Part shown: positions 5,404-43,014 of the stretch, piece after piece | Layout of the letters: each line of letters begins with the position of its first letter | How positions within the stretch are numbered: the stretch's first letter is position 1 | Source: Spirochaetia bacterium | GTDB taxonomy: Bacteria > Spirochaetota > Spirochaetia > SZUA-6 > Bin103 | Assembly (NCBI GenBank): GCA_965208575.1 | Contig: CBDBOV010000006.1 | Location: 32,001 to 96,000 of the forward strand | Direction: 5' to 3' | Length of the DNA stretch: 64,000 nucleotides | Program-made: the position numbers and the translations under genes | Notes under the pieces: generated by a model | The model's database searches: none | Seen by the model: only the letters and a program-made list of their open reading frames with translations | Told to the model about the DNA's origin: nothing

Positions 5404-5618
5404 CCTCCCGGTTGGTGTGCGGCCCGCCACCCTGGCAAGCGCCGGGTTGCCCGCCCGCCCTCCTTTCTGGCACAAAACAGCTCTTCGCGCAAGGAGGCGA
5501 AGCGACTTCCGGCAGCTCCCGGCAGCCCGCGCTGCCGGCCCTACCGGTCGCTGCCGACGACCTGGGTGGCCGTGGCCTGCCGGTAGCGGTGGTCAGCAAC
5601 GACCGATTCGTTGCCGTG

Positions 5619-5647
5619 TTGCAAAAGAAACGATCATTTCTTAAGAT
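5619..5647 (+). promoter_or_regulatory. Putative sigma70 promoter of the Fic gene with overlapping operator
   Basis: TTGCAA-N17-TAAGAT with AAGAAA-N6-TTTCTT inverted repeat in the spacer. Confidence 0.55.
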
Positions 5648-5676
5648 CGCCATAAGGAAGGGAAGGCTTCTCAACG

Positions 5677-7584: not shown

Positions 7585-9132
7585 TCAGGCGTCGGCGGTC
7601 TCGAAGGCGGTGATGTTGCGAGTGGCGCGGCTGAACTCGACGCCCACCAGGTGGATCGGTTCGCCTGCGGCGCGGTACTTGTCGGCGTAGCGGCGCCCCT
7701 GCAACTGGGCGAGCGCCGACCCGGGCGGCGCCATCTCCGCCACCTTGAACTCGAACAGGTAGACGTGGCCGGCGGCGCGCACCGCCATGTCCAGCCGCCC
7801 GTGACTGCTCGACTCCTCCACCGTGATGTCGTAGCCGAGCGCGGCGAAGTAGGAGTAGAACACGCTGGCGTAGAAGCCCTCGTAATCGGCGATGTCGTTG
7901 TTGGTGTACCATTGGTACGGGATGCTGGCGAAGAACGCGCTGAACAGCTCCCGGAGGCCGGCGCAATCGTGCGCCTCCAGCAGGCGCGCCAGGCGGATGC
8001 TGTTGGCGGTCTGCTGCGCCGTGTCCTGCACCAGGTGGCGCAGCAGCACCCGGTTCAGGCTCTGCCGCACCTCCCGGTTGGGATAGCCGAGCCGATACAA
8101 CGCCTCGCCGCCCAGCCGCTCTTCCGCGGCGATGGTCAAGTAGCCGGTCTGGAACAGTAGCGCCTCGGTGCCGATGTGGTGCACGTCGAACGCCGACAGC
8201 AACTCCGCCGTGCTCACCGTGTCGTCCAGCGAAACCGACGACACGCGGCGTTCGAACAGCTTGTCCACCAGGAACGCGGGCGTCCCGGTCTCGAACCAGT
8301 GCGCAGCGTATTCGCCGCGGCGCAGCAGCAGGAGCACGTCGTAGGGGTTGTACACTTTCTCGGCGCCGCGCCAGCTATAGCCGTTGTACCAATCCCGCAC
8401 CTGCTCCCGGTCCAGCGCCGCCATCTCTGGGGCGAACACCGTGTCCAGGTCTTGTTCCGTGTAGCCGCAGATCGACGAGTACGGGGGATCGAGCGTGATG
8501 TCGGTGAGGTTGTTCAGTTGCGAAAAGAGGTTGACCTTCGAGAACTTGGTGATGCCGGTGAGGAACGTGAACCGCACGTGGGCGTCGTTGTCCTTGATCA
8601 CGCCGTACAGCCCGCGCAGGTAGTCGCGGTTGGCGCGCGCCGTCTCGCGCTCCTCCAGCACGTCCAGGATCGGCTTGTCGTACTCGTCCACCAGCACCGC
8701 CACCCGCTGCCCGGCGTGCGCATGCAAAGTCCGTAGCAGATGGGCGAACCGTTCCGGCGCGGTGGCGTAACGTGCGCTCACGCCCTCTCGTTCCGCCACC
8801 GCTTCCAATTGCGCCAGGACACTCGTGTTCACATTCGCCGGCTCGATGAAGCTGCCACCGCCGAAGCTCAACCGCACCACCGGATGGCGCTGCGACCAGT
8901 CGTGGCGGGCGTGGATGTGCAGGCCGGCGAACAGCTCCTCGCTGCCTTCAAACAGCTCCTTGAGGGTATCCAGGAACAGGCTCTTGCCGAAGCGACGGGG
9001 GCGCGACAGGAAATAGTGCTTGCCTTCAAGGAGTAGTCGCTCAATGTAGCCAGTCTTGTCGACATAATAGCAGTCCTGCTCACGCAACTCGCGAAACGTT
9101 TGTATACCGATCGGCAGCCTGCGCCTGATCAT
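7585..9132 (-). CDS. AAA-ATPase-like protein with C-terminal PD-(D/E)XK nuclease
   Basis: LPIGIQTF, YVDKT, RPRRFGKS, LVDEYDKP, GRLDM...FEFK. Confidence 0.92.
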   Translation of the reverse strand: MIRRRLPIGIQTFRELREQDCYYVDKTGYIERLLLEGKHYFLSRPRRFGKSLFLDTLKELFEGSEELFAGLHIHARHDWSQRHPVVRLSFGGGSFIEPANVNTSVLAQLEAVAEREGVSARYATAPERFAHLLRTLHAHAGQRVAVLVDEYDKPILDVLEERETARANRDYLRGLYGVIKDNDAHVRFTFLTGITKFSKVNLFSQLNNLTDITLDPPYSSICGYTEQDLDTVFAPEMAALDREQVRDWYNGYSWRGAEKVYNPYDVLLLLRRGEYAAHWFETGTPAFLVDKLFERRVSSVSLDDTVSTAELLSAFDVHHIGTEALLFQTGYLTIAAEERLGGEALYRLGYPNREVRQSLNRVLLRHLVQDTAQQTANSIRLARLLEAHDCAGLRELFSAFFASIPYQWYTNNDIADYEGFYASVFYSYFAALGYDITVEESSSHGRLDMAVRAAGHVYLFEFKVAEMAPPGSALAQLQGRRYADKYRAAGEPIHLVGVEFSRATRNITAFETADA

Positions 9133-28510: not shown

Positions 28511-30472
28511 CTATCTTACATCCTTAGGTTTTCGACTATACCTCGATAGATATTTTTCAACATACTTCGCACGCAACTGGCAAAAGCTCTTCCGGAATGT
28601 GAAACCCTTCCCGAAACTTAGAAATCCAATCAACAAAGCCACCGCTGCCGAAATAATCCAGGCCATTGGCTCGACCATAATCCCCGCGGCACCTGAAACA
28701 ACCAATAGAACGGCCATCCCGACTGCGATTATCGAATTCAGCACCGTAGCCCACCGAGACCCATAGTCGTAAGCGGCTTCCGTGATCGCGTTCGCGGCAG
28801 CGTCACGCTCCTGTTCAGCCTTCTTACGCCTTGCGTCGATTTCATCGCTTCTCAACTCGACTTCCCTCAATCTCCTCCTCATCTCGCCGCGGATGCCGTC
28901 CTTCAATCCCTCCAGCACCTCAAATGCGGTATCGCTGGTGACGGCTTCTGGATCGCTGAGAGTCTTCTCCGACAAGAGATCCTTCGTCACAGAAGACATC
29001 GTCAGTAGGATATAGTCATCTCCACCGATTCGTCCCTCGTCTCGAAGTCGACGCGCGACGCGCACGATCTTACTCTCTAGGGCTGCATCAGGAGCCATCG
29101 CTGCATAGCACTCTGCAACAAGCCTACTGCGATAAGAAGCCCTCGCCTTTTGTGGTGAGTCAACCCACAATAGTGTGCCAAGAAAGACGTCAGTAACGCA
29201 TACGGGAACGAAACGCGACCCCGCTCGGCTGCCAAGGAGGTCCCGACTGGCGCGTGAGAGCGTCCAGTTATTGCTCAAGAAGACATGCTCCGCATCTTTC
29301 ATCAACACCGGTTGGACTCCGCCACGCAGCCGAGCAACAGCAGCAAGTGAAGCAACGTCCCTAAGCACCCGGTCGCGATGCATGTCTCTATCGAATCCCA
29401 AATCCGATTCGTGATAGAGATTCTCGATGACCCGCTCAATCCGGCCCTCATCAATCTGATGCTCTCGACTCTCGACATAAGGGTGATCTCGGTACACCTC
29501 AATTCCATGTGCACTAAGCGTGTCATCTAGTCGCAAAATAAACATCTCTATCCGAGAATCGCTAAATCCCTGTTGCCTAAAATAGAGCGAGGTACGGCTC
29601 GCCAGTTGGGGGTCGAAGTCCACTCTTCCAACCCAGGACCGCGCCCACTCAAGAATCTGAAGTGATTCTTGTCTTGTGTGCTCGAAGATCCACAGCTTCG
29701 CTCCTCTTTCACGCATTTCGGAAATTAGCTGTACGAATGTAGCAGCCTGCTCTTTTCCCGATGTTCCTATCAGCCGTAAGATGATGGGCGTGTCGATATA
29801 GACATTCACGTTCCGAACTGTGTCGCTTCTATAGTCGTATCCATCGTGGAGAATAGCGGACGTTATCATATTCCCCAATGCCATATCGCACAGAGTTCGA
29901 AAGTCTGCCGGATTCGCCTCATAAGCACTCATCACAAATCGGCTGAACATATAGACGACCGGCCTGTTCCTACGTCCTTTTGGTCGCTCTGGTAGTGCTG
30001 ATCGCGGTCCATCGTGTGAAATCAAGATCTCGATGTCAAATCGATGAAGGAAGTCCAACATTGCCATCTCCGCAATATCAGCGTCGATCGTTTCTTGGTA
30101 CGTTGTCTGAGCGTATTCTATGAAACCTTGCATAAGCGCTCGTTCCTTCCTAATGTAGGAATCTCGCTTCTGGGAAATGGAAAGGCCACTGGCTTTCTCA
30201 GCACTAACAGTGAAGCCGTGATCGGAACGGGTAAGAAGTCCCCGTCGGACGCACCGATTCAGGATGTACAACATCGGGAAATAAGGCAATGTGAGTCCGA
30301 ATTCCTCTTCAAACTGCCCGCATATCCATTGTATATCATCCCGCTCGAATCGACATATATTCCGCGCTCCTAGCAACGTCGCTAAGAACGGTACAAACGT
30401 GTCGATATAATCCTGTTTACGTTGGTCCCATAACGCAGTAGCGACCGCGAGCGACACAAGTGATCTATGCAC
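28511..30472 (-). CDS. Uncharacterised 653-aa protein: PIN-like core, coiled coil, two C-terminal TM helices
   Basis: VYIDTPIILRLIG...IFEHTRQE...RDVASL...VFLSNN acidic pattern; hydrophobic C-terminal hairpin; AT-richer codon use. Confidence 0.7.
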   Translation of the reverse strand: MHRSLVSLAVATALWDQRKQDYIDTFVPFLATLLGARNICRFERDDIQWICGQFEEEFGLTLPYFPMLYILNRCVRRGLLTRSDHGFTVSAEKASGLSISQKRDSYIRKERALMQGFIEYAQTTYQETIDADIAEMAMLDFLHRFDIEILISHDGPRSALPERPKGRRNRPVVYMFSRFVMSAYEANPADFRTLCDMALGNMITSAILHDGYDYRSDTVRNVNVYIDTPIILRLIGTSGKEQAATFVQLISEMRERGAKLWIFEHTRQESLQILEWARSWVGRVDFDPQLASRTSLYFRQQGFSDSRIEMFILRLDDTLSAHGIEVYRDHPYVESREHQIDEGRIERVIENLYHESDLGFDRDMHRDRVLRDVASLAAVARLRGGVQPVLMKDAEHVFLSNNWTLSRASRDLLGSRAGSRFVPVCVTDVFLGTLLWVDSPQKARASYRSRLVAECYAAMAPDAALESKIVRVARRLRDEGRIGGDDYILLTMSSVTKDLLSEKTLSDPEAVTSDTAFEVLEGLKDGIRGEMRRRLREVELRSDEIDARRKKAEQERDAAANAITEAAYDYGSRWATVLNSIIAVGMAVLLVVSGAAGIMVEPMAWIISAAVALLIGFLSFGKGFTFRKSFCQLRAKYVEKYLSRYSRKPKDVR

Positions 30473-30599
30473 AACAATCCTCGGCCGTTGGTAACACGTG
30501 CAGCTCGATCTTGTACACCGCCTTAGGGTACCTTGACGAACGGGTGAGAATAAAGGCTCGATCGGATGAACTGTGTCTGTGACTAGACATGCAGGTCAT
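30465..30599 (-). CDS. 44-aa upstream ORF coupled to the 653-aa gene
   Basis: GAGGGGAGG RBS before ATG 30599; MTCMSSHRH...AEDCCA*; stop overlaps next GTG start. Confidence 0.4.
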   Translation of the reverse strand: MTCMSSHRHSSSDRAFILTRSSRYPKAVYKIELHVLPTAEDCCA

Positions 30600-30889
30600 A
30601 ATATCCTCCCCTCACCAGTCGTACCAGTCTTGAGGCAATTTCGCTGAAGCGGTCTGTGGGCCGATGAGCGGACGGTCATGCCAGAAAGCGCGTGTCTTGG
30701 ACGTTTGACGGCGTCGCTCGACACTCGCCGGGCGTGAATGACGACTGTATCGAGTGTGCTGAATGGAGGCCGCGAGGTGGCATCAAGCCTCGTCCGCGGC
30801 TCGATAGCCGCTCGACGCGCAGATCGGGACAGAGCGGTCTCCCTGAGTAGCCGATGGGGATTGGGTTTCTCTTGGCGACCAGCGAGCGG

Positions 30890-31078
30890 TCGCCGGTCTG
30901 GTGGGTCTGACCAGACTCCGCAGGTTCTCAGGGTTGGTGGGCTCTGATGCGCCCAGGGCCTTCGCCAGCATGATCGTCAGCGCCATGGTGACGCGCAGTT
31001 GCATCTTCGCCAGCCCGCCGATGCCGGGTCGCTCGAACCCGAAGCCGCCAGCCAACCGGCTGTTGACCCGTTCCACGG
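30890..31078 (-). pseudogene. DDE transposase relic (IS5/IS1182-like), C-terminal piece
   Basis: VERVNSRLAGGFGFE...GLAKMQLRV...MLAKALG, frameshifted. Confidence 0.75.
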
Positions 31079-31132
31079 TGTTGGGTCTCACGTAATTCTG
31101 CTGTTTTTTCGCACGGTAATCTGGACACCATA

Positions 31133-31447
31133 TTATTCTGCACCGGGTTGCCGGTGGCCGCGGGCGAGATCTCCTGTCGGTGGTGCTGAGGGGTCCTCAG
31201 GAGATTGTCTCAGGAAGCCGAGAACGGCAGGATGTTTGAGAGAGAGTTCCTGTTCGACGAGAGTCAGCTTGACGGGTGAGTTCTGGAACACGGCGCGCAG
31301 CATGTCGGTGAAGTTGTGCAGCACCATGGCGCCCCAGATGTCATCACGGAAATACACGAAGTAGGTGGCGCGACCGGCGAACGTCCTGGCGTAGGCGAAG
31401 TATTCGCGGTCGCTGCCGGCGATTTTTCTGATAGCGACGTTGATCAC
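31133..31447 (-). CDS. Hypothetical 104-aa protein, last gene of the transposon
   Basis: Starts 10 bp after the ATPase stop; plausible globular sequence. Confidence 0.65.
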   Translation of the reverse strand: MINVAIRKIAGSDREYFAYARTFAGRATYFVYFRDDIWGAMVLHNFTDMLRAVFQNSPVKLTLVEQELSLKHPAVLGFLRQSPEDPSAPPTGDLARGHRQPGAE

Positions 31448-31456
31448 GGAACCGAC

Positions 31457-32287
31457 CTACAGAATCTCGGTGGCAGCGAGCCGGACATGCTCGGCGGCGA
31501 CCACCGAGCAATGCTCGCGAGCGGCCGCCATGAGGGCGCCGCGGGCGAGATGATTGGCGCGCCGCAGGAGCCCGCCGGAGCCCTGATGGATGGCGACGGC
31601 GGCTTCGTCGCTGAGCAGGTCGGCGCTGCGCCGCGCTGTGGCGGACTGGGTGTCCCGCCCGGCGGCGAGCTGCAGATGGTGGTCGAGGTAGCCGCGCATG
31701 TCATCAAGGGAGAGAGCATCGAGGTGGCTGCGGCCCACGACCCGTGAGGCGAGCGGGCGCGAGGTATGGAACAACAGGCGGTCAAGCAGGCTGCTCTGGC
31801 CGGCCAGCACCATCGGCATCAAGGTCTGCGAATCGAAGGCGAACTGAGTGAGAGTGTGGAGCTGTGCGAACACCTCGAAGCGGAGCAGATGTGCCTCGTC
31901 GACGACCAGCAACGGGGTCTGCTTCTTGCGCCTGATGTCGGTCAGCAGGTCGCGCACGGTGCGGCTGAGGACGGCCAGTGAGGAGCGCGGGGGGGTGCCC
32001 ATCTCCAGGCAGATCTGGCGCAGCAGGTCGAGCAGCGTGCCGGTGGTGGCGATGACCGCCAGGAGACGGTATTCGGCGGGGTGCAGGGTGCTCGTGACAT
32101 GGCGCAGGGAAGTGGATTTTCCCGCTCCCACCTCGCCGGTGATGACGGTGATGAGGCCGAGCCCGAGGGCATACTGAAAGCGCTCGGTGAGCGCTTTCAG
32201 GCCCGGGATCGGGTACAGACCGTTGATCGGGACGTCCTGGGGGAACGGATCGCGTTGGAAACCGAAGGCATGTCTGAGGTCGATCAT
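31457..32287 (-). CDS. ExeA/TnsC-like AAA ATPase
   Basis: FGFQRDPF, Walker A GEVGAGKST, Walker B LVVDEAH, LAGQ, SGGLLRRAN; ATGA overlap with transposase. Confidence 0.9.
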   Translation of the reverse strand: MIDLRHAFGFQRDPFPQDVPINGLYPIPGLKALTERFQYALGLGLITVITGEVGAGKSTSLRHVTSTLHPAEYRLLAVIATTGTLLDLLRQICLEMGTPPRSSLAVLSRTVRDLLTDIRRKKQTPLLVVDEAHLLRFEVFAQLHTLTQFAFDSQTLMPMVLAGQSSLLDRLLFHTSRPLASRVVGRSHLDALSLDDMRGYLDHHLQLAAGRDTQSATARRSADLLSDEAAVAIHQGSGGLLRRANHLARGALMAAAREHCSVVAAEHVRLAATEIL

Positions 32288-33600
32288 CGGTCGGACTCCT
32301 CGAACAGCTGGCCGCCGCGGGGGCCGGGCTGGGGGTCATCAGCGGGCGGCTCCGGCGCCGGCTCGAGCTCGGTCTCATGGCCGCTGATGCGGCGCACGCG
32401 GCTGTTGACGTGGGGGTTCAACTCACTGAGGAAGCCGTAAGAGCGATCTTCGAAGAACACCTCGATGCGGGACGGATCAGCCTCATGATAGAGCAGGTTG
32501 ACGGTGTTCCCGATGAGCCCCACCGGCGCTTCGTAGAGCTTGCCGTAGAGGGCGACGGCACGATCCTTGTCGACCTTGCGGCGCACCATGGTGCGGAAGT
32601 GGTCACGCACATTCTGGGGCGCAGGCCGCAGCAGTTCCAGGTGGCGCAGATAGCGCTGCAGGGGCTGCTCCCCGGTGCTGGAGTGAAGCCGCTGATGGTA
32701 GCTGTGGTCGAGCCACTCGGCAAGCTGGGCGTTGAGCTGCTCGAGGGTATCGTGATCGCTGACCAGAGGCAGCATCTGGGTGCGTATGGTGCGGAAATAG
32801 CGCTCGATTTTACCCTTTCCCTGGGGCGTGTATGGGGTCGCGAAGAGGAGCGCTATGCCCAGCGATGCACAGGCGTAACTGAGTCGTTGGGAGCGAAAGC
32901 TGGGGCCGTTATCGACATACAGTTTGCGTGGCAGACCGCGCGTTTCGAGCGCCCGCAGCAGGCAGTCCTGGAAACAGTCGATGTTTTCACGCAGATAGAA
33001 GCGGGCGCCGGTGATGAGCCGCGAGTGATCATCGATGCAGGCGAACAGAAACGTCTTGCGCAGCTTGCCGTCGCTTTTCACGCGCGGGCCGTGCATGCAA
33101 TCCGCTTGCCACAAGTCGTTCGGCAGTTCCGCTTCGAAGCGCCGCCGGTCCTGCGTCGCGGGCCGCTGCCGGTGCAGACCATGGCGCCGGAACAATCGGT
33201 AGATGCTTTGCCGTGAGGCTGCGAAGTCGGGCGGCAGGAGATTGCGGCGGCGCGCCACCTGCAGCACCACTGACAACGACGCCTGTGCCAGTTCACGCCG
33301 GAGATTGACCAGTGCCAACTCGGTCTCGGGATCGATGCTGCGCCCCACGCCGGCGTCCGCGCGGTCCTTCGGGAACAGGCTCTCCAGTTTCTTGCCGCTG
33401 TGCTCGTAACGCCGCAGCCAGTCGCGGATCGTCGACCGGCTGATCGAACTGCGCAGCGAGAATGGGATCTTCCATTCCTGCTCCGCCAGGTCCTTGATGC
33501 GCGCCTCGCGCTTGCCCTGGTCGAGCTTCGCATACCCGATCAGGCCGGCGATCACACCGAACCGGAACAACGCGATCCGCTTTTTCTTCTCTTCCTCCAT
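32284..33600 (-). CDS. DDE transposase/integrase (HTH + rve + Mu-transposase-C)
   Basis: IALFRFGVI, LWQADCMHG, YVDNG, GKGKIERYF; CAGGAGG RBS before ATG 33600. Confidence 0.9.
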   Translation of the reverse strand: MEEEKKKRIALFRFGVIAGLIGYAKLDQGKREARIKDLAEQEWKIPFSLRSSISRSTIRDWLRRYEHSGKKLESLFPKDRADAGVGRSIDPETELALVNLRRELAQASLSVVLQVARRRNLLPPDFAASRQSIYRLFRRHGLHRQRPATQDRRRFEAELPNDLWQADCMHGPRVKSDGKLRKTFLFACIDDHSRLITGARFYLRENIDCFQDCLLRALETRGLPRKLYVDNGPSFRSQRLSYACASLGIALLFATPYTPQGKGKIERYFRTIRTQMLPLVSDHDTLEQLNAQLAEWLDHSYHQRLHSSTGEQPLQRYLRHLELLRPAPQNVRDHFRTMVRRKVDKDRAVALYGKLYEAPVGLIGNTVNLLYHEADPSRIEVFFEDRSYGFLSELNPHVNSRVRRISGHETELEPAPEPPADDPQPGPRGGQLFEESDR

Positions 33601-33881
33601 GATCGAGGAACCTCCTGGGGTGTTGGTGGCATCAATTTGCTCCCCATTGGTTCGCCGATCACCGCAAAGATCCGGTAGGCTTGGGGTCACCCAGGCGCCA
33701 GTTCGCGTTATTTTCTCCGCTCCGATCATGATCAGCCGCGCCACCAGCGCCCTGCCCGCAGCGTCGCCCGGACAGCCACCCAAGCGCCAAAGGCGCTCGC
33801 CAGCACCGCGGCGGCGTCCTCCTGCACTGCTCACCAGCCACTTGCCCGGTCTGAGCCGGCACCCCGCGACCAGCACCGTGC

Positions 33882-34493
33882 TCATCGTGCCCCGTGACTG
33901 GGTGTCGGCTCATTCCCTGGCTCCTTCAGGGCGCTGTCTGCTGTGCTCCCGACGCCATCAAGGTGTCCCGCAAAGCCCACCACCGGCACCGCCAGCACCA
34001 ACTCGGGGGCGGCATCCACTCGCCGTATCTGGCGGTAGCTCACCGAATGCGTACTGACGATGATCAACCGCACCACCAGCGCCTTCAGCGCACTGGCCGC
34101 AACCTGGCCCGGCCGGCTCACCGCGGTCACCCCCTCCAGCAACAACTGCCGGCGCAACCCCTGGCGCCAGTACTGCTGCCGCTGTCGGCTCACCCGCGCG
34201 ATCCAGCGACCACCCTTCAGCTTGCCCAGCAGGGCTACCAGAATCACTCGCCACGGCGCCCAGAACCCGCGGTAGTGGCTGTCCGGTCGCAGCGTGTACA
34301 CGGTCCCGCAGTCCGGACACCGGTAGCGCTTCATCCACAGCGGCTCGCCGCAGCCATCGAAGCACCGTCCGACATAGCCATGGCCCCACGGCCGCCTCCG
34401 ACCGCACTCCAGGCAGCGCTCCGGCCGCGGCCACCGATACTCCTTGCCCTGTTCCTGAAGTCTCTTGAAATCAACCGCCAGATGGAGTACCAA
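33882..34493 (-). CDS. Zinc-ribbon protein (DUF6431-like), first gene of the transposon
   Basis: CLECG...WGHGY...RYRCPDCG motifs. Confidence 0.75.
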   Translation of the reverse strand: MVLHLAVDFKRLQEQGKEYRWPRPERCLECGRRRPWGHGYVGRCFDGCGEPLWMKRYRCPDCGTVYTLRPDSHYRGFWAPWRVILVALLGKLKGGRWIARVSRQRQQYWRQGLRRQLLLEGVTAVSRPGQVAASALKALVVRLIIVSTHSVSYRQIRRVDAAPELVLAVPVVGFAGHLDGVGSTADSALKEPGNEPTPSHGAR

Positions 34494-34654
34494 TCGGCTG
34501 TCCTTAGTTCAGGGTAGCTGTCCGGTTCTCATCACCTGGGGCAGCTACCCTGTTTTTCTGGTCAGTTTACCTCGACTCTCCCGTCCTCCACTCCAGTCGA
34601 TCGTGAGACGTCCGCCCCCATTCCGCTCAGATCAATCTGAGAGCCGACACACGG

Positions 34655-35127
34655 CTCCGCGCTGGGCGTAGAAGTCCTGCCACCGGTAGCTGGACCGCGC
34701 CACCGGCGTGAACACGCGCCGATCCTCGGCCAGCGGGATGCGTACCGCGTCGCTCACCGGGCACCGATCCATGCCTTTGCAGGTGATCCCCAAGTAGCGC
34801 GCCCGGACAGCGATACCCCGGCATCTCGCGATCCTGCTCGAAGCCGCCGTAGGCCATGCTGTGCAGCTCACCGGTCTGCGGGCACATACAGATACTTGGC
34901 CGTCGTGGGTATAGATCACGTTCTCCTGACCGTTCACCAGCTTGGTGAGGACGCCATCCCGTTCCGCCTCTCCGTCCTTCCAGCAGTTGCGAATCGCGAT
35001 GATCGGCTTGATCTGATGCTGTTGCCACAACCGATTGATCAGCTTGTGGGCGTCGTAGCCCTTGTCGGCGCTCATGCGATCGCACCGCTGCAGCAGTTCG
35101 GGATGACGCTACTGCATCTGAGCAAGG
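34655..35127 (-). pseudogene. DDE transposase relic, middle piece
   Basis: RHPELLQRCDRMSADKGYD...IKPIIAIRNCW...RVFTPVARSSYRW; frameshifts and a stop. Confidence 0.8.
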
Positions 35128-35171
35128 GGACTCCTCACCATTTGTCAAGGGCGAATTTCGGTCGCTGGAGC

Positions 35172-35769
35172 ATGAGGGCAGGTGCCTGGTGCGGAAGGAC
35201 TGGGAAGTGCACGCATCAGGCTCCCGGCGGAAGTTGAAGGCGGCAATTCTGAATAGTTCAGCAGAGAAAGCCCGGAAGGTGTGCTGTTCAGGCAGGATGA
35301 TCCTGGAATGCCAAGGACCGGACCTATAACCGTCGGATGGCGGGAAGTGGAGCGGAGAGCAGCACACTGGCGGATGAGGCCGCCAAGCGAGGATGGCCGC
35401 GACAACATAACGCGGCTGGAGCGAGGGCCTCAGGGCTCAGGAGGAGCCAGTGGTAGTGCGTCGCCCGGACACTGAGCCGGGGAAACGGCGACACGGTGAC
35501 CGCTGACTCGAAGCGACGGTCAAACCGGGGGCAGCACCCGCGTAGCCGGGGATCAGGCTGAGCGTGGATGCTGTCGCATCGGGAAGGGCCGCCGCGAGCT
35601 TGCGGGCGCCTGAGCTTCGAGCCGGACCGTGGGAAAACCCGATGTCCGGAATCCTAGGGGCGCGCTGGAAACGTGGCCTATGGTGGAACTGTGAACCCAC
35701 CTCGCTTATCGAAAGGGCGGGGCTGGAAACCCTCCGCCTACGGGTGCGCGCGCCAGCGCTCTACCCGAC
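35172..35769 (+). ncRNA. ORF-less group II intron, probably 5'-truncated
   Basis: Domain V GAGCCGGACCGTGGGAAAACCCGATGTCCGGAATC (35619-35653); long domain VI ending CTACCCGAC (35769); DII/DIII-like motifs CCTATAACCG, GACAACATAAC...GGAGCGAGGGCC; no RT ORF. Confidence 0.85.
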
Positions 35770-35822
35770 GGGGTGTCGTGACGCTGTGGATAAGTGGATA
35801 AGTCGGCGGCGTCGCGGGGAGG

Positions 35823-36026
35823 TCAGTAGCCAGATGGACGGCGCCGACGCTTGGGTGCGGGGCCGAGAACCGCGGGCAGAGCGGCCTCGATATCGGCGAC
35901 CTTGGTGATTTCTTCCTCGATCAGGCGAATCACCTCCGCGCGGATCGTCACTCCGCGGGTGGCACACAGCAGCTTGAAGCGGCGATGAAGCGAGTCGGGG
36001 AGATCGCGTACGTAGAGAGTTGCCAT
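35823..36026 (-). CDS. Ribbon-helix-helix DNA-binding protein (Arc/ParG/FitA-like)
   Basis: MATLYVRDLPDSLHRRFKLLCATRGVTIRAEVIRLIEE; AT-rich upstream patch with TAGC-N3-GCTA palindrome. Confidence 0.75.
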   Translation of the reverse strand: MATLYVRDLPDSLHRRFKLLCATRGVTIRAEVIRLIEEEITKVADIEAALPAVLGPAPKRRRRPSGY

Positions 36027-36495
36027 AGTAGCTTTGCTAACATTAATAACATAGATTGCGCAACGAACCGCCCGCGCGCTGTCCCACGGCCAGTTTCGCG
36101 TAACTCGCCAGCAGACCAAACCGATGCGATCCTGCGAGACCTCTCAGTCAGGCCGCCATGCGGTGACCGGTGGCAGGCTTCCGCTTTCGAAGCCCGACGC
36201 TCCGGGTGTCTCCCGTCGCCGGTCGTCTTCGTGGCTGCTCAGGCTGCAGCGCAGCCGCGTGCTCGTCGTCCCACGGCGCCGGCGCCCGGCGTTCACCGTC
36301 CACCGGAGTCGTCATCGACCGCAAAATTGGCCGTCTGCGCGCCGGTCGCCGTCCAAGCCGGCCTCTGACGCCCTCAGGACCGTCCGGGTACCCCAGGCAA
36401 CCCTCCGGAACCACCGCCGACGCCGTCTCCCGACCGCCGGCCGGCTCACGCTGGCCTCCACGCCACCCCTGTTACGTCCGCCCCACGCGCCTCGA

Positions 36496-37740
36496 TCAGG
36501 CGGCCGGCGTGCGTCCAACCCGGTGCTCGGGATCGTACGGCGTTCGATCTCGCAGCATCGCGCACGCCACCCTCAGCAGCCGCTCCGAGACCGTTCGCAG
36601 GGCGTGGCCATGGCGTTTGCCCCGCCCGCGCAGCTCGCCATACCGCTCCCGACTCGCCGCATCGTGCTGGATCGCCACCCGCGCCCAATGATACATCGCG
36701 TCGCGCAACCGCTTGTTGCACGCACGTCGCATTATCACCACGCGGGTCTTCCCCGACCGCCGGGTCACCGGCGCCACTCCGGTCAGGATGCGCAACGTGT
36801 GATAGTCTCGGGCTGCCAGGGCCTGTGTGGCCTCTGCGAGCAGCGTGGCGAGCACGATCCGACCGATTCCGGGCATGGACAGGAGGATGGAGGCGTCACG
36901 CTGCTCTTCTGTTTCTGCCGAGTCGTCGTTGCCCACCATCTCGGCGATCAGTTCGTCCAGTCGAGCGTGCGCCTGGTCGATCAACTGGTTCACCGGCCTC
37001 AGCCGGGTGATGAGACTCTCGATGTGCGCCTTCGCCGCGACCGTCGTCCCGCGGCTCACCTGCAGCGGCTGCTGCCGCAGGATGTGCAGCACCCCGGCGG
37101 CATCGAGGCGCCGGATGCGGTTTCTCTTCAGGATCGCCGCGATCGACGCCTTGCGGATGCGCGCCGCCTCCGCCGGCGTCGGCGCCTTCTCCCACAGCTC
37201 CAGGAACCAGGCGGCTCCGAGATCTCCGCCCAACTCCAGCATCTGCGGGTAGTAGCGCCGCAGTTGCTCGCGCCGGCGATTGATCAGCCGGTTGCGGTCC
37301 TGCTTCAACTCCTCCCTCATGCGCGACCATTCCCGCAACTCGATCACCTCCGGCTCCTCCACCTGCAGATGGCGAAAACTGCGCCGGTCGGTGCGTAGCG
37401 AGTCCGCCAACACCCGCGCGTCGCGCCGGTCGTCCTTGGCCCCGGCCGCCGTAAACCGGTCCCGAAATCGATCCAGCTGCTTGGGATTGATCGCGTACAC
37501 CTGCACCTCGCGCTCCAGCAGCATCTCCACCACCGCTCCATGCGGCATTTCGATCGCCGCGTGCACGCTCGCCAGGTGCCCGCCGGACAACTCGTCCAAC
37601 CACCTGCACAGGTCGGCGATGCCGGCGCCGCTGTGCGCCACCTCGCGCTCCCCGACTACCTTGCCGTCTCCTGCCAGCACACACACCTGGTGCTGTTCGG
37701 TCGCCCAATCCACTCCCACGAACCACTGTTCGGTTGACAT
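36496..37740 (-). CDS. IS110-family DEDD recombinase/transposase
   Basis: VGVDWA, AIEMP, KDDRRDA, PGIGRI, APVTRRSGK. Confidence 0.95.
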   Translation of the reverse strand: MSTEQWFVGVDWATEQHQVCVLAGDGKVVGEREVAHSGAGIADLCRWLDELSGGHLASVHAAIEMPHGAVVEMLLEREVQVYAINPKQLDRFRDRFTAAGAKDDRRDARVLADSLRTDRRSFRHLQVEEPEVIELREWSRMREELKQDRNRLINRRREQLRRYYPQMLELGGDLGAAWFLELWEKAPTPAEAARIRKASIAAILKRNRIRRLDAAGVLHILRQQPLQVSRGTTVAAKAHIESLITRLRPVNQLIDQAHARLDELIAEMVGNDDSAETEEQRDASILLSMPGIGRIVLATLLAEATQALAARDYHTLRILTGVAPVTRRSGKTRVVIMRRACNKRLRDAMYHWARVAIQHDAASRERYGELRGRGKRHGHALRTVSERLLRVACAMLRDRTPYDPEHRVGRTPAA

Positions 37741-37769
37741 CCCGTCACCCCCGAGTTTGTGTAGCTCGG

Positions 37770-38000
37770 CTGCCACGATGTCGTTTCCGCCGCTGTACTG
37801 GTGCTCCCGGGCTCCGCCGCTCCTGGCGCCTTCGCTCCTTGGCACGACTCCTCACTGGGTATCCATCGCGGCTCTCCTGCCGGGGCACACGTCCCCCCCC
37901 CAGGTGCTCTCTGGCGCTCGGGGGGCCAAGGTGCTCCGGGCAGGTTGCCTTGCCCGTCAGGGATTCTAGCAGTCCCTCACGAACTATCGAACTATCTACT
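37770..38000 (-). ncRNA. Putative IS110 bridge RNA in the left end
   Basis: Segments match target flank (37920-37928 = 38015-38023), right end (37846-37855 = 35129-35138) and left end (37793-37798 is the reverse complement of 38010-38015); RNA ends approximate. Confidence 0.8.
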
Positions 38001-38016
38001 TTCTAAAGGGTACAGG

Positions 38017-38270
38017 GGGGCCACTGTGCCCGTTGTTACTCACCGGTCGACGCCCTGGTGACCTCGAATGACAGCCGCAACTCGTAGGTGGCGTCCACGA
38101 CCAGATGCGACAGGTAGCCGAACCAGTAGCGCTTCTTCTCGCCGAAGCCATTGACGCCCCAATCGGAATCCCGGTCGCCGCGCCCGTCGGTATCTTCGGT
38201 GGTTCTATCCTTGGGCAGCGGATAGTTGCTCCCACCCTTGGCCAGGGAGTGCAGCTCAGCGGGAAGTCAC
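38017..38270 (-). pseudogene. DDE transposase relic, upstream piece
   Basis: DGRGDRDSDWGV...KRYWFGYLSHLVVDATYELRLSFEVTRAS. Confidence 0.75.
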
Positions 38271-38289
38271 GCCGCAGCGCGGCGCTGCC

Positions 38290-38883
38290 GTTGCCGCAGG
38301 AGACCGGGGAGACAACCTCAAGGACGACTATACATCCTGCGAGCGCGACCGCGCACCGCCTGCTCGATGGTGTTTCCGCGATTCCGTGCTCCGCACGGCT
38401 GCCTGTCCGCCTCCGCGGTCAGCGCAATTGTCGTGCGCCGAGCCATGAAGCGGGCTGGGATCGACGGCCAGGGCCTCCCGGCCGCCTACGTGTTCCGTCA
38501 CTCGAGAGCCACTCATCTGCTGCACGGCGGACCTGCACCGGAGGCCGTTGGCGCCCTCCTGCGTCACCAGCGGGTGGAGACGACCGCACCCTCCGCGTGG
38601 ATGCTCCCATGCTGCTCGCTGTGCCACAGCATTGGCCGGGGAACCCCGACGACGCTGGCCGACCATGTTCTGACCCATGCCGCGGTCAAGCGCGTCACCG
38701 GCCTGGGCTTCCCGGAACAAGGAGCGGCTTCTGGCCAGCTTCGCCCGGGACGCCGAAGCACAAGGCGAGCGATGCGTGCGCGATGAGACCTGTCTCGACT
38801 GGCGGCGCAGTCCGCGTCACCGCATGAAAAACAACAGCGGCTACACCTTGTGCCGGCTGGCCGCCTACTTGCAAGCTGACTAA
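38290..38883 (+). pseudogene. Degraded tandem tyrosine recombinase genes (RIT-like relic)
   Basis: VFPRFRAPH...VRRAMKRAGI...VFRHSRATHLL...LLRHQRVETT followed by LADHV...KRVTGLGF, the start of a second integrase; several frameshifts. Confidence 0.65.
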
Positions 38884-39219
38884 CGTCACGACCCCGCGGC
38901 ACGGAAGATGTTGCCGGTCGCCGAACGCAAGTTCCCGGCACCCCACCCACCCGAGCTATTGCCGGCTACGGACGCCCGGGCGGAGAGCCGATACCGCGTA
39001 CCTACCAAAGTGCGCCAACAGTAGGAGGCCGCCGCATGGTTCGTAAGAGCATCCGTTGACCGAACTCAACCCTCCGCTCAGATCCCACAGTCCGAGCATC
39101 GACAACCGTCTTCCCGGAATATCACGCATCGTACGCTCGTGCCAACTCGACGCAACGCTTCTCGCGCTTCGCAACATGCGTGCCTTGCACGATCGCGTTT
39201 ATCCCAGTATCGTCACAAT

Positions 39220-40578
39220 ATGGCCAGTTACGCACACTGCTGGCTCGACGGATTGCTGATCGGGTCAACCAGGAACTTCGTCCATCCAGACCTTATATCC
39301 CTTTTCAACCCGACTGACAAGATTGTCCTTTCACCACCGATTGAGATCTCCCCACCTCACGTACTTCATCATAAAGAGTGGTTAGTGGAAGATCCCGAAT
39401 CTAGGTTAATCTACTACGAGACCAACATAGGCATAGTACGAGACCGGCTCGAGATTCTCGGTTACGACCTAGAAACCAGCAAGAGCGCGTTTTGCGACTG
39501 GCGTAGAGCCGAGCTTGAAGGATACACCGACCGCATTCGAGAATTGCGATCTGACGAAGCAGATTATGTACCTATAATGATCGAATTCTGCAATCGTCAC
39601 ATCGATTTCTTAGAACGACTCACTCCGGATATATGGGTCAACGCGCTCAGATCGATACGTTCTAATGAGTCTAGATCTCAGCTTATCCGGACAAGTGAGT
39701 GTTTCGAGAAAAGTGATGTGATCGGACAGATGCAGTCACGAGAATGGCACGGTGCACCAGGTGAAGACGTTCTCGTGGCACTCAGGATGGCGATCGAATG
39801 TGCGGACCACACCAAGGCGATGATCTATGACCTTAGCGATCTTGTATGGGGAGACGGCGTCGACGACTACTCCATTAACTATGTAGAGTACGGACAAAAT
39901 GTCTCCGCAGAAGAATATAGAAACAGAGCAAAAACAGTAGTTCTTACCGAAGGCCGGACGGATGCATGGATACTAGAGGAGTCTCTCCGCGTCCTATTTC
40001 CTCATCTCATCGACTACTATTCTATTCTCGACTTTAGTACTGCCGCTTATGGCGGCGGTGTCGGCAACCTTGCGAATGTAGTGAAAGCACTATCGGGTGC
40101 CGATCTAGCGAACAATTTCGTTGCTGTATTCGACAATGACACTGCATCAAGTGCAGCATGCAAGAAGATGACAGACGAAGCCTTACCTTCGAATATTGAG
40201 ATAGTAAGGCTTCCCGAAATGGAGTTTCTGAAGTACTATCCGACGCTAGGTCCAAACGGGCAGGTTGAGTGTGACATAAACGGACTCGCAGCAAGCATTG
40301 AACTTTACTTGGGGAAAGATGTATTGGGATTAGAAGGAGGTCAGTTCATGCCAATCCAATGGATGGGATACGAGAAGGGGCTTAGACAGTACCAAGGCGA
40401 GATCTTGGACAAGGATACGCTACACAAGCGATTTCGGAGAAAACTCGCTGAAAGTGGTGCAGCGAGTGAGGCTGATTGGGAACCCTTGCGCCGAGTGTGG
40501 CGCACTATATTCAGTGCTTTTCGGAGAAAGAGGCGACGTACGATCTGTAGTCTTGCTAAGGAGCACTATGGCGGATAG
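39220..40578 (+). CDS. HEPN/Toprim-associated N-terminal domain plus TOPRIM-fold nuclease
   Basis: RDRLEILGY, IYDLSDLV, VLTEGRTD, GGVGNL, AVFDND, IELYLG; AT-richer than host. Confidence 0.75.
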   Translation: MASYAHCWLDGLLIGSTRNFVHPDLISLFNPTDKIVLSPPIEISPPHVLHHKEWLVEDPESRLIYYETNIGIVRDRLEILGYDLETSKSAFCDWRRAELEGYTDRIRELRSDEADYVPIMIEFCNRHIDFLERLTPDIWVNALRSIRSNESRSQLIRTSECFEKSDVIGQMQSREWHGAPGEDVLVALRMAIECADHTKAMIYDLSDLVWGDGVDDYSINYVEYGQNVSAEEYRNRAKTVVLTEGRTDAWILEESLRVLFPHLIDYYSILDFSTAAYGGGVGNLANVVKALSGADLANNFVAVFDNDTASSAACKKMTDEALPSNIEIVRLPEMEFLKYYPTLGPNGQVECDINGLAASIELYLGKDVLGLEGGQFMPIQWMGYEKGLRQYQGEILDKDTLHKRFRRKLAESGAASEADWEPLRRVWRTIFSAFRRKRRRTICSLAKEHYGG

Positions 40579-41276
40579 TAAAATACGCGCGCTCGCCGTC
40601 ACGCCGTCGGAATCTCACAGCTGCGTCTTATGTGGAGCGTGGGGCGCACCCTACTTGGCTCCCTCTTGATACCACGTGTGGATGGGCGCGACGGCGTTGG
40701 CTACGAAGGAAAACTGGTAACATCCTTGCGCCAGAGTAGCAAGCCCATGCTCGCCACTCAACTTTGGCGGGACGTGACAGTTTTCCGACTGGGAATGGAT
40801 AGTGGACAAGCGTGGTTTAGCACCTTGGACGTGCTCGGTGCGATCGGTGCGGTTGGCGGATTCCTTCTGGCGGTATGCCAAGCGCTCCTTCAATGTGAGA
40901 ATCTCCGGGTTTGAGTCCGAGCATCCATCGGCTAGATTATACCGAATTGACGTTCGTACCGTTAGCGGCGCGGATGGCTTGGCTGGTGGCTGCCGACACC
41001 GCCATTGTCTATGTTTCGTGCACCTTACAAGCGTCTATAGGGCATCCAGTTCGTCGCTCTCCGGAGTGTTAGGAGCGGTGCCCTGGTGCCAAGTGTCCGT
41101 CGGAACCTCGACGAGTACCAAAGGCCGAATCGGAGGACACGTCGCCGGTTGGCTTGATCACTTCCGATCACGCCCGCAACTTCCCACTATTCTACAATTG
41201 TCGAGTCATGCGCTCGTCGCTTGTCAAAGCGACACCGCATTTGACGTCCCGCTGGGAGAAGACACACATTGTGCAC

Positions 41277-41513
41277 ATGAAGCGGATCGGGATTCGGAAA
41301 CTGCACTTGAAGACCGGCGAGTGGGTACGCAGCGCGGCTCTCGGCGAGGGCGTGGCAACTACCGACCGCGGGCGGCCGGTGGCGTCTCTGCTGCCGGTTC
41401 GGCCGGGCGACCTGAGCGCGCCGTTCCGCCAGCGCCTGACGTTACGCGTGTTCGATGCCCTGCCGTCCGTATCGGGTTACTCCGGCCTGTACGTGTCGGA
41501 GGACCGTGAGTGA
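41277..41513 (+). CDS. Phd/YefM-type antitoxin, no toxin partner
   Basis: MKRIGIRKLHLKTGEWVR...TDRGRPVASLLP...VSEDRE. Confidence 0.7.
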   Translation: MKRIGIRKLHLKTGEWVRSAALGEGVATTDRGRPVASLLPVRPGDLSAPFRQRLTLRVFDALPSVSGYSGLYVSEDRE

Positions 41514-41586
41514 GCAGCGGCTACGGGATGCGGCGCCAGCGTTGGACATGCAGAGGTATAACGTGATTCGGACGGAGTAGCGGAAG

Positions 41587-43014
41587 ATGTATCAACAGAC
41601 CTTTTCAGCGGAGACGTTTGCCGGGCGGCGGCGGCGGGTGGCGGAACAGATTGGGGCTGGGGCCGTGGCGGTCGTTCAGGGAGCGCGCGGTTCGGGGTCG
41701 CATGACCAGTTTCGGCAGAGCAACGAGTTGTTCTACCTGTGCGGGGTGGAGGTGCCGCATGCCTACCTCTTGATCGAAGGCGGCGACGGCACGGCGGCGC
41801 TGTTTCTGCCGCACCAGGATCGGCACAGCGTGGAGGCGGAGGGCGAGCACCTGTCGGCGGACAACGCGGAGCGGGCGCGGGAGCTTACCGGCGTGGATCG
41901 GGTGGCGGCGCTCGCGGCGCTGCCGGCGGCGCTGCGCGGGGCGAAGGCGATATGGACGCCGCTGTCGCCGGCGGAGGGGGCGCGCTCCAGTTGGGACACG
42001 CTGCGGCGGGCGCAGGAGGAGGCGGAGGCCGACCCGTTCGATGGCACCCCGGCGCGGGAGGCGGCGTTTGCCGGCCTGCTGCGGCGGCGTTGCCCGGCGG
42101 CGCGCATCGAGGACCTGTCGCCGGTGCTGGACGAGATGCGGCTGGTCAAGGACGAACAGGAGGTGGCGGTGCTGCGGGAGGCGGGGGCAATCTGCGCGGA
42201 TGCGTTGACCGCCTGCATGCGCGCCATGGCGCCGGGAGTGATGGAGTATCAGCTCGCCGGTGTGCTGGAGTACCACTACCGGGTCAGCGGTTCGCGCGGC
42301 GCCTCCTATCACCCGATCATCGCCGGCGGCACCAACGCCTGGTACGGGCACTACGATGCCAATGACGCGCCCCTCGCCGACGGCGACCTGGTGCTGGTGG
42401 ACTGTGCGCCCGACCATCACTACTACACCTCCGACATCACCCGCATGTGGCCGGTGAACGGCGTCTACAGCGACACCCAGCGCGCCCTGTACGGCTTCAT
42501 GATCGCCTACCACAAGGCACTGCTGGCGGGCATCCGTCCGGGCCGCACCGACGACGACATTCACCGCGAGGCGGCTCAGGTGATGGCCGCCTACCTGGAG
42601 CGGACGCCGTTCGCCGACCCCGTGCACGAGCGGGCGGCGCGCAGCGCCCTGGAGTTCCCGCACCACCTGTCTCACCCGGTCGGCATGGCGGTGCACGACG
42701 TCAGCCACTACCGCGGCCAGCCGCTGCGGCCCGGCATCGTGTTCTCGGTGGACCCGCAGATGCGCATTCCGGAGGAGCGGCTCTACCTGCGGGTGGAGGA
42801 CACGGTAGTGGTCACCGACGACGGCTGCGAGAACCTCACCGCGGCCGCACCGCTGGAGATGGACGATGTCGAAGCCACCATGCGCGAACCGGGGATCATC
42901 CGGCGGAGGGACGAACGGGTCTTGGGCAGTATGCGTGACCGCACGAAAGTCGTCGGCGACATAGTCTCACCGGCATCGGATCCATCGGACTGGGAGGTGC
43001 TGCGCCCGACATGA
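41587..43014 (+). CDS. pepP: Xaa-Pro aminopeptidase (M24B)
   Basis: FRQSNELFYLCG, DEMRLVKD, YTSDITR, SHPVGMAVHD, RVEDTVVVT. Confidence 0.88.
   Translation: MYQQTFSAETFAGRRRRVAEQIGAGAVAVVQGARGSGSHDQFRQSNELFYLCGVEVPHAYLLIEGGDGTAALFLPHQDRHSVEAEGEHLSADNAERARELTGVDRVAALAALPAALRGAKAIWTPLSPAEGARSSWDTLRRAQEEAEADPFDGTPAREAAFAGLLRRRCPAARIEDLSPVLDEMRLVKDEQEVAVLREAGAICADALTACMRAMAPGVMEYQLAGVLEYHYRVSGSRGASYHPIIAGGTNAWYGHYDANDAPLADGDLVLVDCAPDHHYYTSDITRMWPVNGVYSDTQRALYGFMIAYHKALLAGIRPGRTDDDIHREAAQVMAAYLERTPFADPVHERAARSALEFPHHLSHPVGMAVHDVSHYRGQPLRPGIVFSVDPQMRIPEERLYLRVEDTVVVTDDGCENLTAAAPLEMDDVEATMREPGIIRRRDERVLGSMRDRTKVVGDIVSPASDPSDWEVLRPT

Follow-up and report, generated by a model that had tools for sequence, protein, structure and literature searches.

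The insertion sequences (ISs) of the IS110 group are described as having a DEDD recombinase, a long left end with a sigma-70 promoter and a structured RNA, a donor guide that matches the element end, and a short right end (Durrant et al., Nature 2024, PMC11208160). A 64,000-nt stretch of DNA from a Spirochaetia bacterium (GenBank assembly GCA_965208575.1, contig CBDBOV010000006.1, positions 32,001 to 96,000), which as a whole we call the window, contains an element that resembles this group in all but the last of these features. Its left end is 283 nt long, whereas its right end is 1,369 nt long and bears a gene for a small ribbon-helix-helix (RHH) protein. Our reading, to which we give a probability of about 0.6, is that this is a functional-looking bridge-RNA-guided element of the IS110 group in which a right end that has grown stepwise carries a heritable RHH module, likely encoding an autoregulated repressor.

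The earlier note on this DNA saw in it a candidate for an undescribed IS110 subtype, and that suggestion has been overtaken by a 2026 preprint on cargo-bearing IS110 loci that grow downstream and by a 2025 paper on a hitchhiking module. In the preprint, Hu, Xie, Yang and Rubin (bioRxiv 10.64898/2026.08.14.744561) report stepwise growth downstream of the transposase, with tandem non-coding repeat units and module duplications, at thousands of IS110 loci. Those loci are like ours in having a canonical transposase and bridge-RNA module with DNA added downstream, and in their nested insertions, but the emphasis there is on plasmid-derived and resistance cargo of up to about 100 kb, whereas here growth amounts to 1.4 kb with one RHH gene and non-coding units as cargo. 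In the main text of that preprint, supplements apart, the word "antitoxin" does not occur and "ribbon" is found only in figure-plot wording. The 2025 paper concerns ISPpu9 with MITEPpu9/ssr9 (Pares-Guillen et al., NAR 2025, PMC12288879), where a small-RNA module lies behind an IS110-family transposase and also moves alone. The likeness lies in a separate module behind the transposase that also occurs alone elsewhere in the genome, has tandem duplicates in some strains and may regulate the element. In ISPpu9, however, the small-RNA module is flanked by both end boxes (A'/B'), whereas the module here is protein-coding, has only the right terminus in recognisable form and is known from sequence alone.

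The third system to be compared is Arc of IS605-family transposons, a small RHH protein that binds and represses the transposon's own promoter (Moon et al., bioRxiv 10.64898/2026.09.24.754181). Here too a small RHH protein is encoded inside an RNA-guided IS, but the IS family and its mechanism (TnpA/TnpB) are different, and for the RHH protein of the window binding and repression are what we infer. IS110 goes unmentioned in the text of that preprint, and among the papers listed by a full-text literature search (article text, not supplements) none deals with an IS110 right end that bears an RHH gene. The locus is real, well bounded and more than a one-off, and it is a variant of the process described in 2025-2026.

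The limits of the element are given by the IS in which it sits. All coordinates are window positions, and L- and G-numbers denote loci and genomes respectively. When a 3.4-kb query was compared with its own genome, whose contigs have a GC content of 67-68% (the window is likewise high in GC), homology to the host IS broke off at 35126 and restarted at 38024. The halves lie at 34900-35126 and 38024-38257, and the gap between them is 6 nt in the nine intact copies of the host IS; this IS is multi-copy and IS1182/IS5-like (sub-threshold NCBIfam matches), and the copy that is interrupted has diverged. Read in the direction of the recombinase the element starts with CCCCCCTGTACCCTTTAGAAAG and finishes with CCCTTGACAAATGGTGAGGAGTCCCC, and both ends align with L016, L018 and G403. 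The insertion sites have little in common beyond a C-run. The element is single-copy, in that a tblastn search of the genome yielded no other recombinase of its kind, and the right-terminus motif occurs once in that genome in the right context. ARAGORN found no tRNA or tmRNA in 34000-39000. The coordinates of the features are collected in the table.

Features of the IS110-group element in the window, and position of the right-end motif in relatives
Feature	Position	Strand	Remarks
Whole IS110-group element	35127..38023	minus	about 2.9 kb; both junctions are C-runs, ends uncertain by about 3-6 nt
Terminal segment of right end	35127..35185	minus	outward-facing TTGACA 35143-35148, GGTGAGGAGT 35130-35139, C-run 35127-35129
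Unit of about 600 nt without ORF, putatively structured	35186..35783	plus	antisense to RHH gene and recombinase
Tandem TGTGGATAA/AGTGGATAA	35785..35801	plus	the TTATCCAC doublet in RHH sense; 21-38 nt past RHH stop
RHH gene	35823..36026	minus	67 aa, same direction as recombinase; PF22513 FitA-like_RHH
Operator-like 9-bp tandem repeats	36035..36059	minus	GTTAttaAT-GTTAGCA; end 8 nt before RHH start codon
Non-coding A region	36100..36495	minus	core at about 36285-36465 is a dispersed repeat
IS110-family recombinase	36496..37740	minus	414 aa from ATG 37740, apparently intact
Left end	37741..38023	minus	283 nt; promoter, then conserved structured non-coding region (putative bridge RNA)
Left-end 9-mer GTGAGGAGT	37847..37855	minus	same as terminal 9-mer of right end; putative donor-binding guide
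Right-end motif, L043 and L045	+7 after stop		
Right-end motif, L025	+31 after stop		
Right-end motif, L049	+61 after stop		
Right-end motif, L022 and L027	+227 after stop		
Right-end motif, L046	+229 after stop		
Right-end motif, L021	+232 after stop		
Right-end motif, L040 and L041	+241 after stop		
Right-end motif, window	+1358 after stop		
Right-end motif, L016	+1366 after stop		

The recombinase has the two domains of the IS110 group, the DEDD (RuvC-like) domain at the N-terminus (PF01548, DEDD_Tnp_IS110, 1-155 of 155 at 124.6 bits) and the Tnp domain at the C-terminus (PF02371, Transposase_20, 2-86 of 87 at 61.2 bits), and it matches the NF033542 model for "IS110 family RNA-guided transposase" over its whole length (1-343 of 343; 168.5 bits, cut-off 140). 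The ATG at 37740 is taken as the start because the Pfam domain begins at residue 43 of the longest open reading frame (ORF). Upstream of it the left end has a sigma-70-like promoter (TCGATA-16-TAGAAT at 37990-37963), which is the sole promoter-like match in a consensus scan of the element, with GTTCG repeats over its -35 region. The structured region that follows folds, in RNAalifold with seven left ends, into 73 predicted pairs of which five show compensatory changes.

That the terminus at 35130-35148 is genuine is seen from a 9-mer that the two ends share. In the window and L016 it is GTGAGGAGT at both ends, while L021, L022 and L027 have GTGGGAAGT and L049, L040, L041, L043, L046 and L025 have GTGGGGAGT, in each case at left end and right end alike. 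The same variant is at both ends in 9 of 15 relatives examined, with the motif at the right end alone in one, at the left end alone in two (where the contig stops) and at neither end in three (L023, L024 and L044). This co-variation across three lineages is the pattern expected of a bridge-RNA donor guide, and since the left-end 9-mer is identical to the terminus and co-varies with it, 35130-35139 is shown to be the functional right end. The left end thus appears to hold a structured RNA with a sequence matching the donor end, as in the IS110 group; of the guide and target code of the clade the right-donor 9-mer is the part worked out. We also considered a bridge RNA downstream of the recombinase, as in the IS1111 type, encoded by the 450 nt or so that follow the stop, and this was rejected, given the donor-matching 9-mer and promoter in the left end and an A repeat without convincing covariation.

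The size of the right end stands out among relatives, which were sampled at 36 loci, 20 of them from genomes and 16 from metagenomes. In ten of them the right-end motif starts between 7 and 241 nt past the recombinase stop, and in two multi-copy relatives (53% and 44% identity), in which copy-to-copy comparison gives elements of about 1.75 kb, the right ends are about 245 and 200 nt. The motif is kept in the multi-copy relatives whose ends were mapped in this way. For the clade it reads TTGAC-AA-N-GGTG[AG]G[AG]AGT followed by Cs, the form CTTGACAAATGGTGAGGAGTCCCC being common to the window and L016, with variants in distant relatives; the terminal segment of the window aligns with L016 6562-6623. 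The outlines drawn in the earlier note for this part of the locus hold up well: the recombinase stop at 36496 closes an ORF with both IS110 domains, the right terminus put at 35130 falls within the 35127-35130 indicated by the break in host-IS homology and the terminal motif, and the enlargement to about 1.37 kb is evident against the relatives. So does its description of about 450 bp of non-coding DNA after the recombinase (we count 469 nt from the recombinase stop to the RHH start, in which the ORFs have no family match), and so does the 67-aa RHH gene, which is real by family match and by substitution rates, as discussed below. The search for further copies in the same genome that it proposed is the one that showed the element to be single-copy.

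The RHH gene product matches PF22513 marginally (27.5 bits with a cut-off of 27) and has the two helices that follow an N-terminal beta-strand in this fold. In an AlphaFold2 model (pLDDT 75) the helices are at 11-24 and 28-54, and the top Foldseek neighbours are ParG, Arc, CopG, AmrZ, PutA and omega with TM-scores of 0.5-0.59; a predicted complex of two copies scored 0.35, below the mark of 0.42. Homologues fall in 19 clusters with 69-97% identity, mostly of 61-67 aa, and in 11 of the 19 PF22513 is among the precomputed annotations. They share an invariant P58 and R61 in a short and strongly basic C-terminal tail (PKRRRRP). The ratio of non-synonymous to synonymous substitution rates (dN/dS) is 0.15 for the window gene and that of G420, 0.25 for window and G423, 0.20 for G420 and G423, and 0.18 for window and G403, which indicates that the gene is under purifying selection between these four genomes.

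The gene recurs in the right ends of close homologues, and the alternative that the earlier note allowed for, of a one-off rearrangement or assembly chimera, falls with this. L016, in genome G401 and with 83% identity in the recombinase, is an element at 3730-6623 of its locus with a right end of 1,378 nt, in which two tandem modules of A repeat and RHH gene, 87% alike, are followed by the same terminus as in the window; the element is directly upstream of an SBP_bac_5 gene, and on its other side the gene upstream of it (2712-3716) matches DruA (PF14236, E=8.9e-49). On contig C54 of G403 the RHH gene (97% identity, at 107-307) and recombinase (98%, at 2931-4172) are on the same strand, with an IS21 (IstB, PF01695) inserted in the A region between them. 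The third case is G407, in which the RHH gene is found in six aligned right-end remnants discussed below. Independent metagenome contigs bridge the RHH gene to the recombinase, one of them (from run X5) spanning 35783-36879, and the arrangement is therefore not an assembly chimera. The RHH module is a heritable feature of the lineage and has reached various sites in more than one genome.

With the RHH protein of the window as query, 398 of 400 other genomes sampled in the phylum of the window gave no match and two gave distant ones at 39-42% identity, and it was not found in 75 of 91 genomes of the order to which G401 belongs.

Conserved with the RHH gene are repeats on both of its flanks. Two or three GTTAGCA-like repeats at 9-nt spacing lie upstream of it in every copy read (window, G403, both L016 copies, the G407 copies, L073 and L075). 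The palindrome in an AT-rich promoter that had been seen at 36027-36065 resolves into such direct repeats (GTTAnnn-nn-GTTAGCA), and there is no sigma-70 match at that place. Behind the gene there is an exact TGTGGATAA at 35785 and then AGTGGATAA at 35793, that is, by sequence match, one exact and one single-mismatch box in tandem for the DnaA consensus TTATCCACA. The DnaA-box-like 9-mers of the earlier note are thus present, and the TTATCCAC doublet follows the RHH gene in four lineages (window, G403, L016b and L075, with a C-rich tract next to it in the last two), while over the whole window there is no clear excess of them: with up to one mismatch there are 9 matches where 3.7 +/- 2.0 are expected, and 2 of 100 shuffles reach 9. 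The support for the doublet therefore comes from its conservation in relatives and not from the count across the window. Past the doublet the right end continues for some 650 nt, as far as 35127.

The alternative that survives best, although we consider it unlikely, is that we are looking at a tandem pair, in which a short autonomous IS110 element ends soon after the recombinase stop and is followed by a non-autonomous RHH module, like a miniature inverted-repeat transposable element (MITE), which has a right terminus of its own and hitchhikes or moves or persists alone. There is a precedent in ISPpu9, for which circles of the transposase alone, of transposase plus ssr9 and of ssr9 alone are reported (PMC12288879). 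The terminus immediately after the stop in L043 and L045 fits this arrangement, as does the tandem duplication of the module in L016, and there are degenerate terminus-like strings 30-45 nt past the stop in the window and L016, and also at the left edge of the L076 and L088 units (about 9 of 12-13 positions, judged by eye and without statistics).

The G407 genome bears on this. The RHH gene occurs there seven times, with no recombinase closer than 1.5 kb to any of the copies, and all six that were aligned end about 230 nt later in CTTGCTTAATGGTGAGGAGT plus poly-C, which is the right terminus, so that a module with a right terminus is indeed found alone there. In MITEPpu9, however, both end boxes are present, whereas here nothing like a left-end box was found where the module begins, and on the left the G407 units stop at varying points (L076 positions 1110, 1308, 1405, 1526 and 1539), at least one of them (L094) being cut by the terminus of another IS110-type element. 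This looks like truncation and not like precise transposition of a module, and in the window the insertion is bounded by one left end and one right end only. We read the G407 copies as truncated remnants of right ends, a conclusion that comes from comparison of their sequences. Six of the seven precede SBP_bac_5 genes by 500-900 nt and run in the same direction as those genes; an earlier idea, that RHH is a chromosomal gene captured from ATP-binding cassette (ABC) transporter loci, was revised once the copies were seen to end in the IS110 right terminus.

A second alternative is that the right end is a tolerated landing pad in which DNA accumulates, and that the RHH gene is merely carried along, does nothing for the element and is in decay. 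The right ends of the clade do hold an IS21 in G403 and tandem group II introns in G407, several RHH copies are degraded, and among the other contents of these right ends are A repeats, which recur beside the ends of IS3-type transposases, and, in the window, the unit of about 600 nt. The A repeat, which occurs twice in the L016 right end and three times in that of L018, is found at 9 other places in G401, and the clearer of these copies (75-80%) adjoin the ends of IS3-type transposases. In the genome of the window there are seven matches at 64%, which looked compositional at first, and no convincing conserved fold was found for the repeat (2 of 28 pairs compensatory). Copies of this repeat of about 170 nt that lie outside the IS in G401 include L065 1531-1667, L068 1497-1664 and 2268-2398, and L069 1501-1621, that of L065 being beside the 3' end of an IS3-type transposase.

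The unit at 35186-35783 is absent from the L016 right end, where homology restarts at 35185, and its parts match DNA elsewhere. The part at 35462-35767 is 65-70% similar to intergenic DNA between genes for a substrate-binding protein (SBP) and a permease in L037 and L038 and, over 87 nt, 95% identical to L036 in the same genome; 35182-35435 is 93% identical to a piece of L117 in G407 that is also near a right terminus; and a metagenome contig of run X7 spans 35186-35567 with a different left flank. The earlier note took it for a group II intron fragment, which we could not confirm as stated. Rfam, group II models included, gave no match in 35100-36500 at E<=10 and none in 30000-42000 at E<=1 save chance-level mir-1268 and isrD, so neither domain V/VI nor D1-D4 was recognised, and there is no ORF with a family match that might be an intron-encoded reverse transcriptase. 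Just upstream of the similar DNA in L037 there is a sub-threshold match to group-II-D1D4-4 (32 bits, gathering score 49). From its sequence we would class the unit as an unclassified, ORF-less and apparently structured one, possibly derived from an intron. L037 (311-530 and 2593-3160) and L038 (5896-6001), both on contig C6 of this genome, are paralogous peptide-ABC-transporter loci, each with a group II D1D4-6 match upstream of the SBP gene and a conserved non-coding stretch of about 600 nt between the SBP and permease genes.

For the RHH gene itself the passenger idea does less well, and we think it quite improbable. The dN/dS values of 0.15-0.25 among window, G403, G420 and G423 indicate purifying selection, and most of the 19 homologue clusters retain the length of the gene. 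Its conservation extends to the repeats upstream and to the TTATCCAC doublet, and its position near the terminus recurs in three genomes.

Very little speaks for an orphan antitoxin of the FitA/VapB type that neutralises a PIN toxin of host or plasmid (anti-addiction) and does not regulate the element: although the best family match is to FitA-like_RHH, the top PDB sequence match is to FitA of Neisseria gonorrhoeae FitAB (2H1O, 2BSQ; RHH residues 2-45, at a non-significant E=0.25) and the genome has weak RHH paralogues at other places (33% identity, E=0.002), we saw no ORF resembling a toxin gene next to the RHH gene in the window, L016, G407, L073 or L075 (with Pfam applied to the neighbouring ORFs of the window only), so that there is no adjacent PIN or FitB partner gene in an operon as in VapBC and FitAB and an antitoxin is the weaker reading, and the toxin-binding tails of VapB and FitA are unlike the short and basic tail found here.

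We therefore return to the reading of a bridge-RNA-guided element with a stepwise-grown right end, and suggest how it might work. The recombinase and left-end RNA would need only the last 10-25 nt or so of the right end as donor site. DNA between the recombinase gene and the terminus would travel with the element, and the right end could grow by insertions and duplications and still move. In this lineage it would have grown stepwise from tens or hundreds of nt to about 1.4 kb, taking up, probably in this order, the A repeat unit, then a small autoregulated RHH gene with the TTATCCAC doublet behind it and, in the branch of the window and G403 only, the unit of about 600 nt. The RHH protein would be a dimeric repressor of its own gene that binds the 9-bp tandem repeats at the start of that gene. 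It would lower transcription inside the right end or outward from it, and perhaps that of the element, as Arc does in IS605.

A more far-reaching form of this, about which we are doubtful, is that this IS110 lineage has in the RHH protein an accessory repressor dedicated to it, a counterpart of Arc, acting on the 9-bp repeats and perhaps also on the GTTCG repeats at the left-end -35 and on the TTATCCAC doublet. It would then determine how much bridge RNA and recombinase is present and how strongly transcription runs outward from the right end, and the right-end remnants in front of ABC-transporter binding-protein genes (six of seven in G407, and the same position in G401) would be domesticated regulatory cassettes.

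A number of observations weigh against our preferred reading of a functional element with an RHH regulator. The consensus scan of the element gave no sigma-70 promoter for the RHH gene, and structural and PDB matches of its product are individually non-significant (no Foldseek match at E<=0.001, and FitA by sequence as above). Both L016 copies of the gene are impaired, the first being open with a scrambled stretch and the second frameshifted, and those of G407 look decayed, with dN/dS of 0.6-0.7 in comparison with window, G403 and L016, a proline in helix 2, and loss of the stop codon in three of the four full-length copies read. G420 and G423 each have an intact RHH gene of 61 aa and no clade recombinase in the genome at E<=1e-20, and the gene is thus not dependent on the IS. 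With the window RHH as query the gene is missing from the loci of the 34 other relatives fetched (82% identity or less), from the 1.4 kb of right end visible in L018 (82%) and from the full-length G407 copies (78%), which have behind the recombinase a small gene, here called X, and tandem intact group II introns (RF02005, an RVT_1 ORF and RF00029). In a comparison at the level of contigs no excision product or circle junction of the element, which is single-copy, was seen, and the sole joint across it in independent metagenome contigs (35126 to 38039) has the letters of other host-IS copies and does not represent an empty site.

With regard to a circle junction, a hybrid promoter formed there was considered and set aside, as TTGACA is 13 nt from the C-run but its spacing to TACCCT would be about 21 nt at the observed C-run lengths, including those of L117, and none is convincing. 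In L117 of G407, at about 8860-8882 on the reverse strand (2120-2142 in recombinase orientation), a left end follows immediately on a right terminus (TTGACAAATGGTGAGGAGTCCCCCCTGTACCC) in a head-to-tail or circle-junction-like arrangement.

Other details of the G407 copies may be recorded here. Gene X encodes 95 aa with no Pfam or NCBIfam match and is seen with the introns in L116 (3292-3579 and 3853-8542, with D1D4-6 as RF02005) and also in L117-L119; X-like ORFs are present in L018 (2901-3164, opposite strand) and in L071 (1491-1784), beside an IS3-type copy in the genome of the window. In the full-length G407 copies no right terminus is seen over about 7 kb. The foreign terminus in L094 is ATGACAAAGGGTGGAAGTCCC, at about 1485-1510 in RHH orientation, inside the RHH remnant and at a C-rich site.

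The area around the interrupted IS is a pile-up of mobile elements. Adjoining that IS on one side there are, on the minus strand, a Mu-type/rve transposase gene at 32284-33885 (rve, rve_3 and Mu-transpos_C) and a 203-aa ORF without family match at 33882-34493, and just past the host IS on the other there is a 479-aa ORF at 39139-40578 on the plus strand with a defence-type HEPN/Toprim N-terminal domain (PF18871, E=1.6e-7).

Work is under way to turn bridge-RNA recombinases into tools for genome writing, and the natural rules by which such elements carry cargo and restrain themselves are thus of practical interest. This locus offers a small and traceable case of right-end growth, in which the donor terminus has been kept in agreement with the guide, a gene for an accessory DNA-binding protein stays near the terminus across genomes, and the stretch between is also a target for other mobile RNAs and ISs. 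If the RHH protein has no role in regulating the element, the locus would be one more ordinary case of the expansion process described in 2025-2026. If it does regulate the element, this would be a second family of RNA-guided ISs with a built-in RHH repressor.

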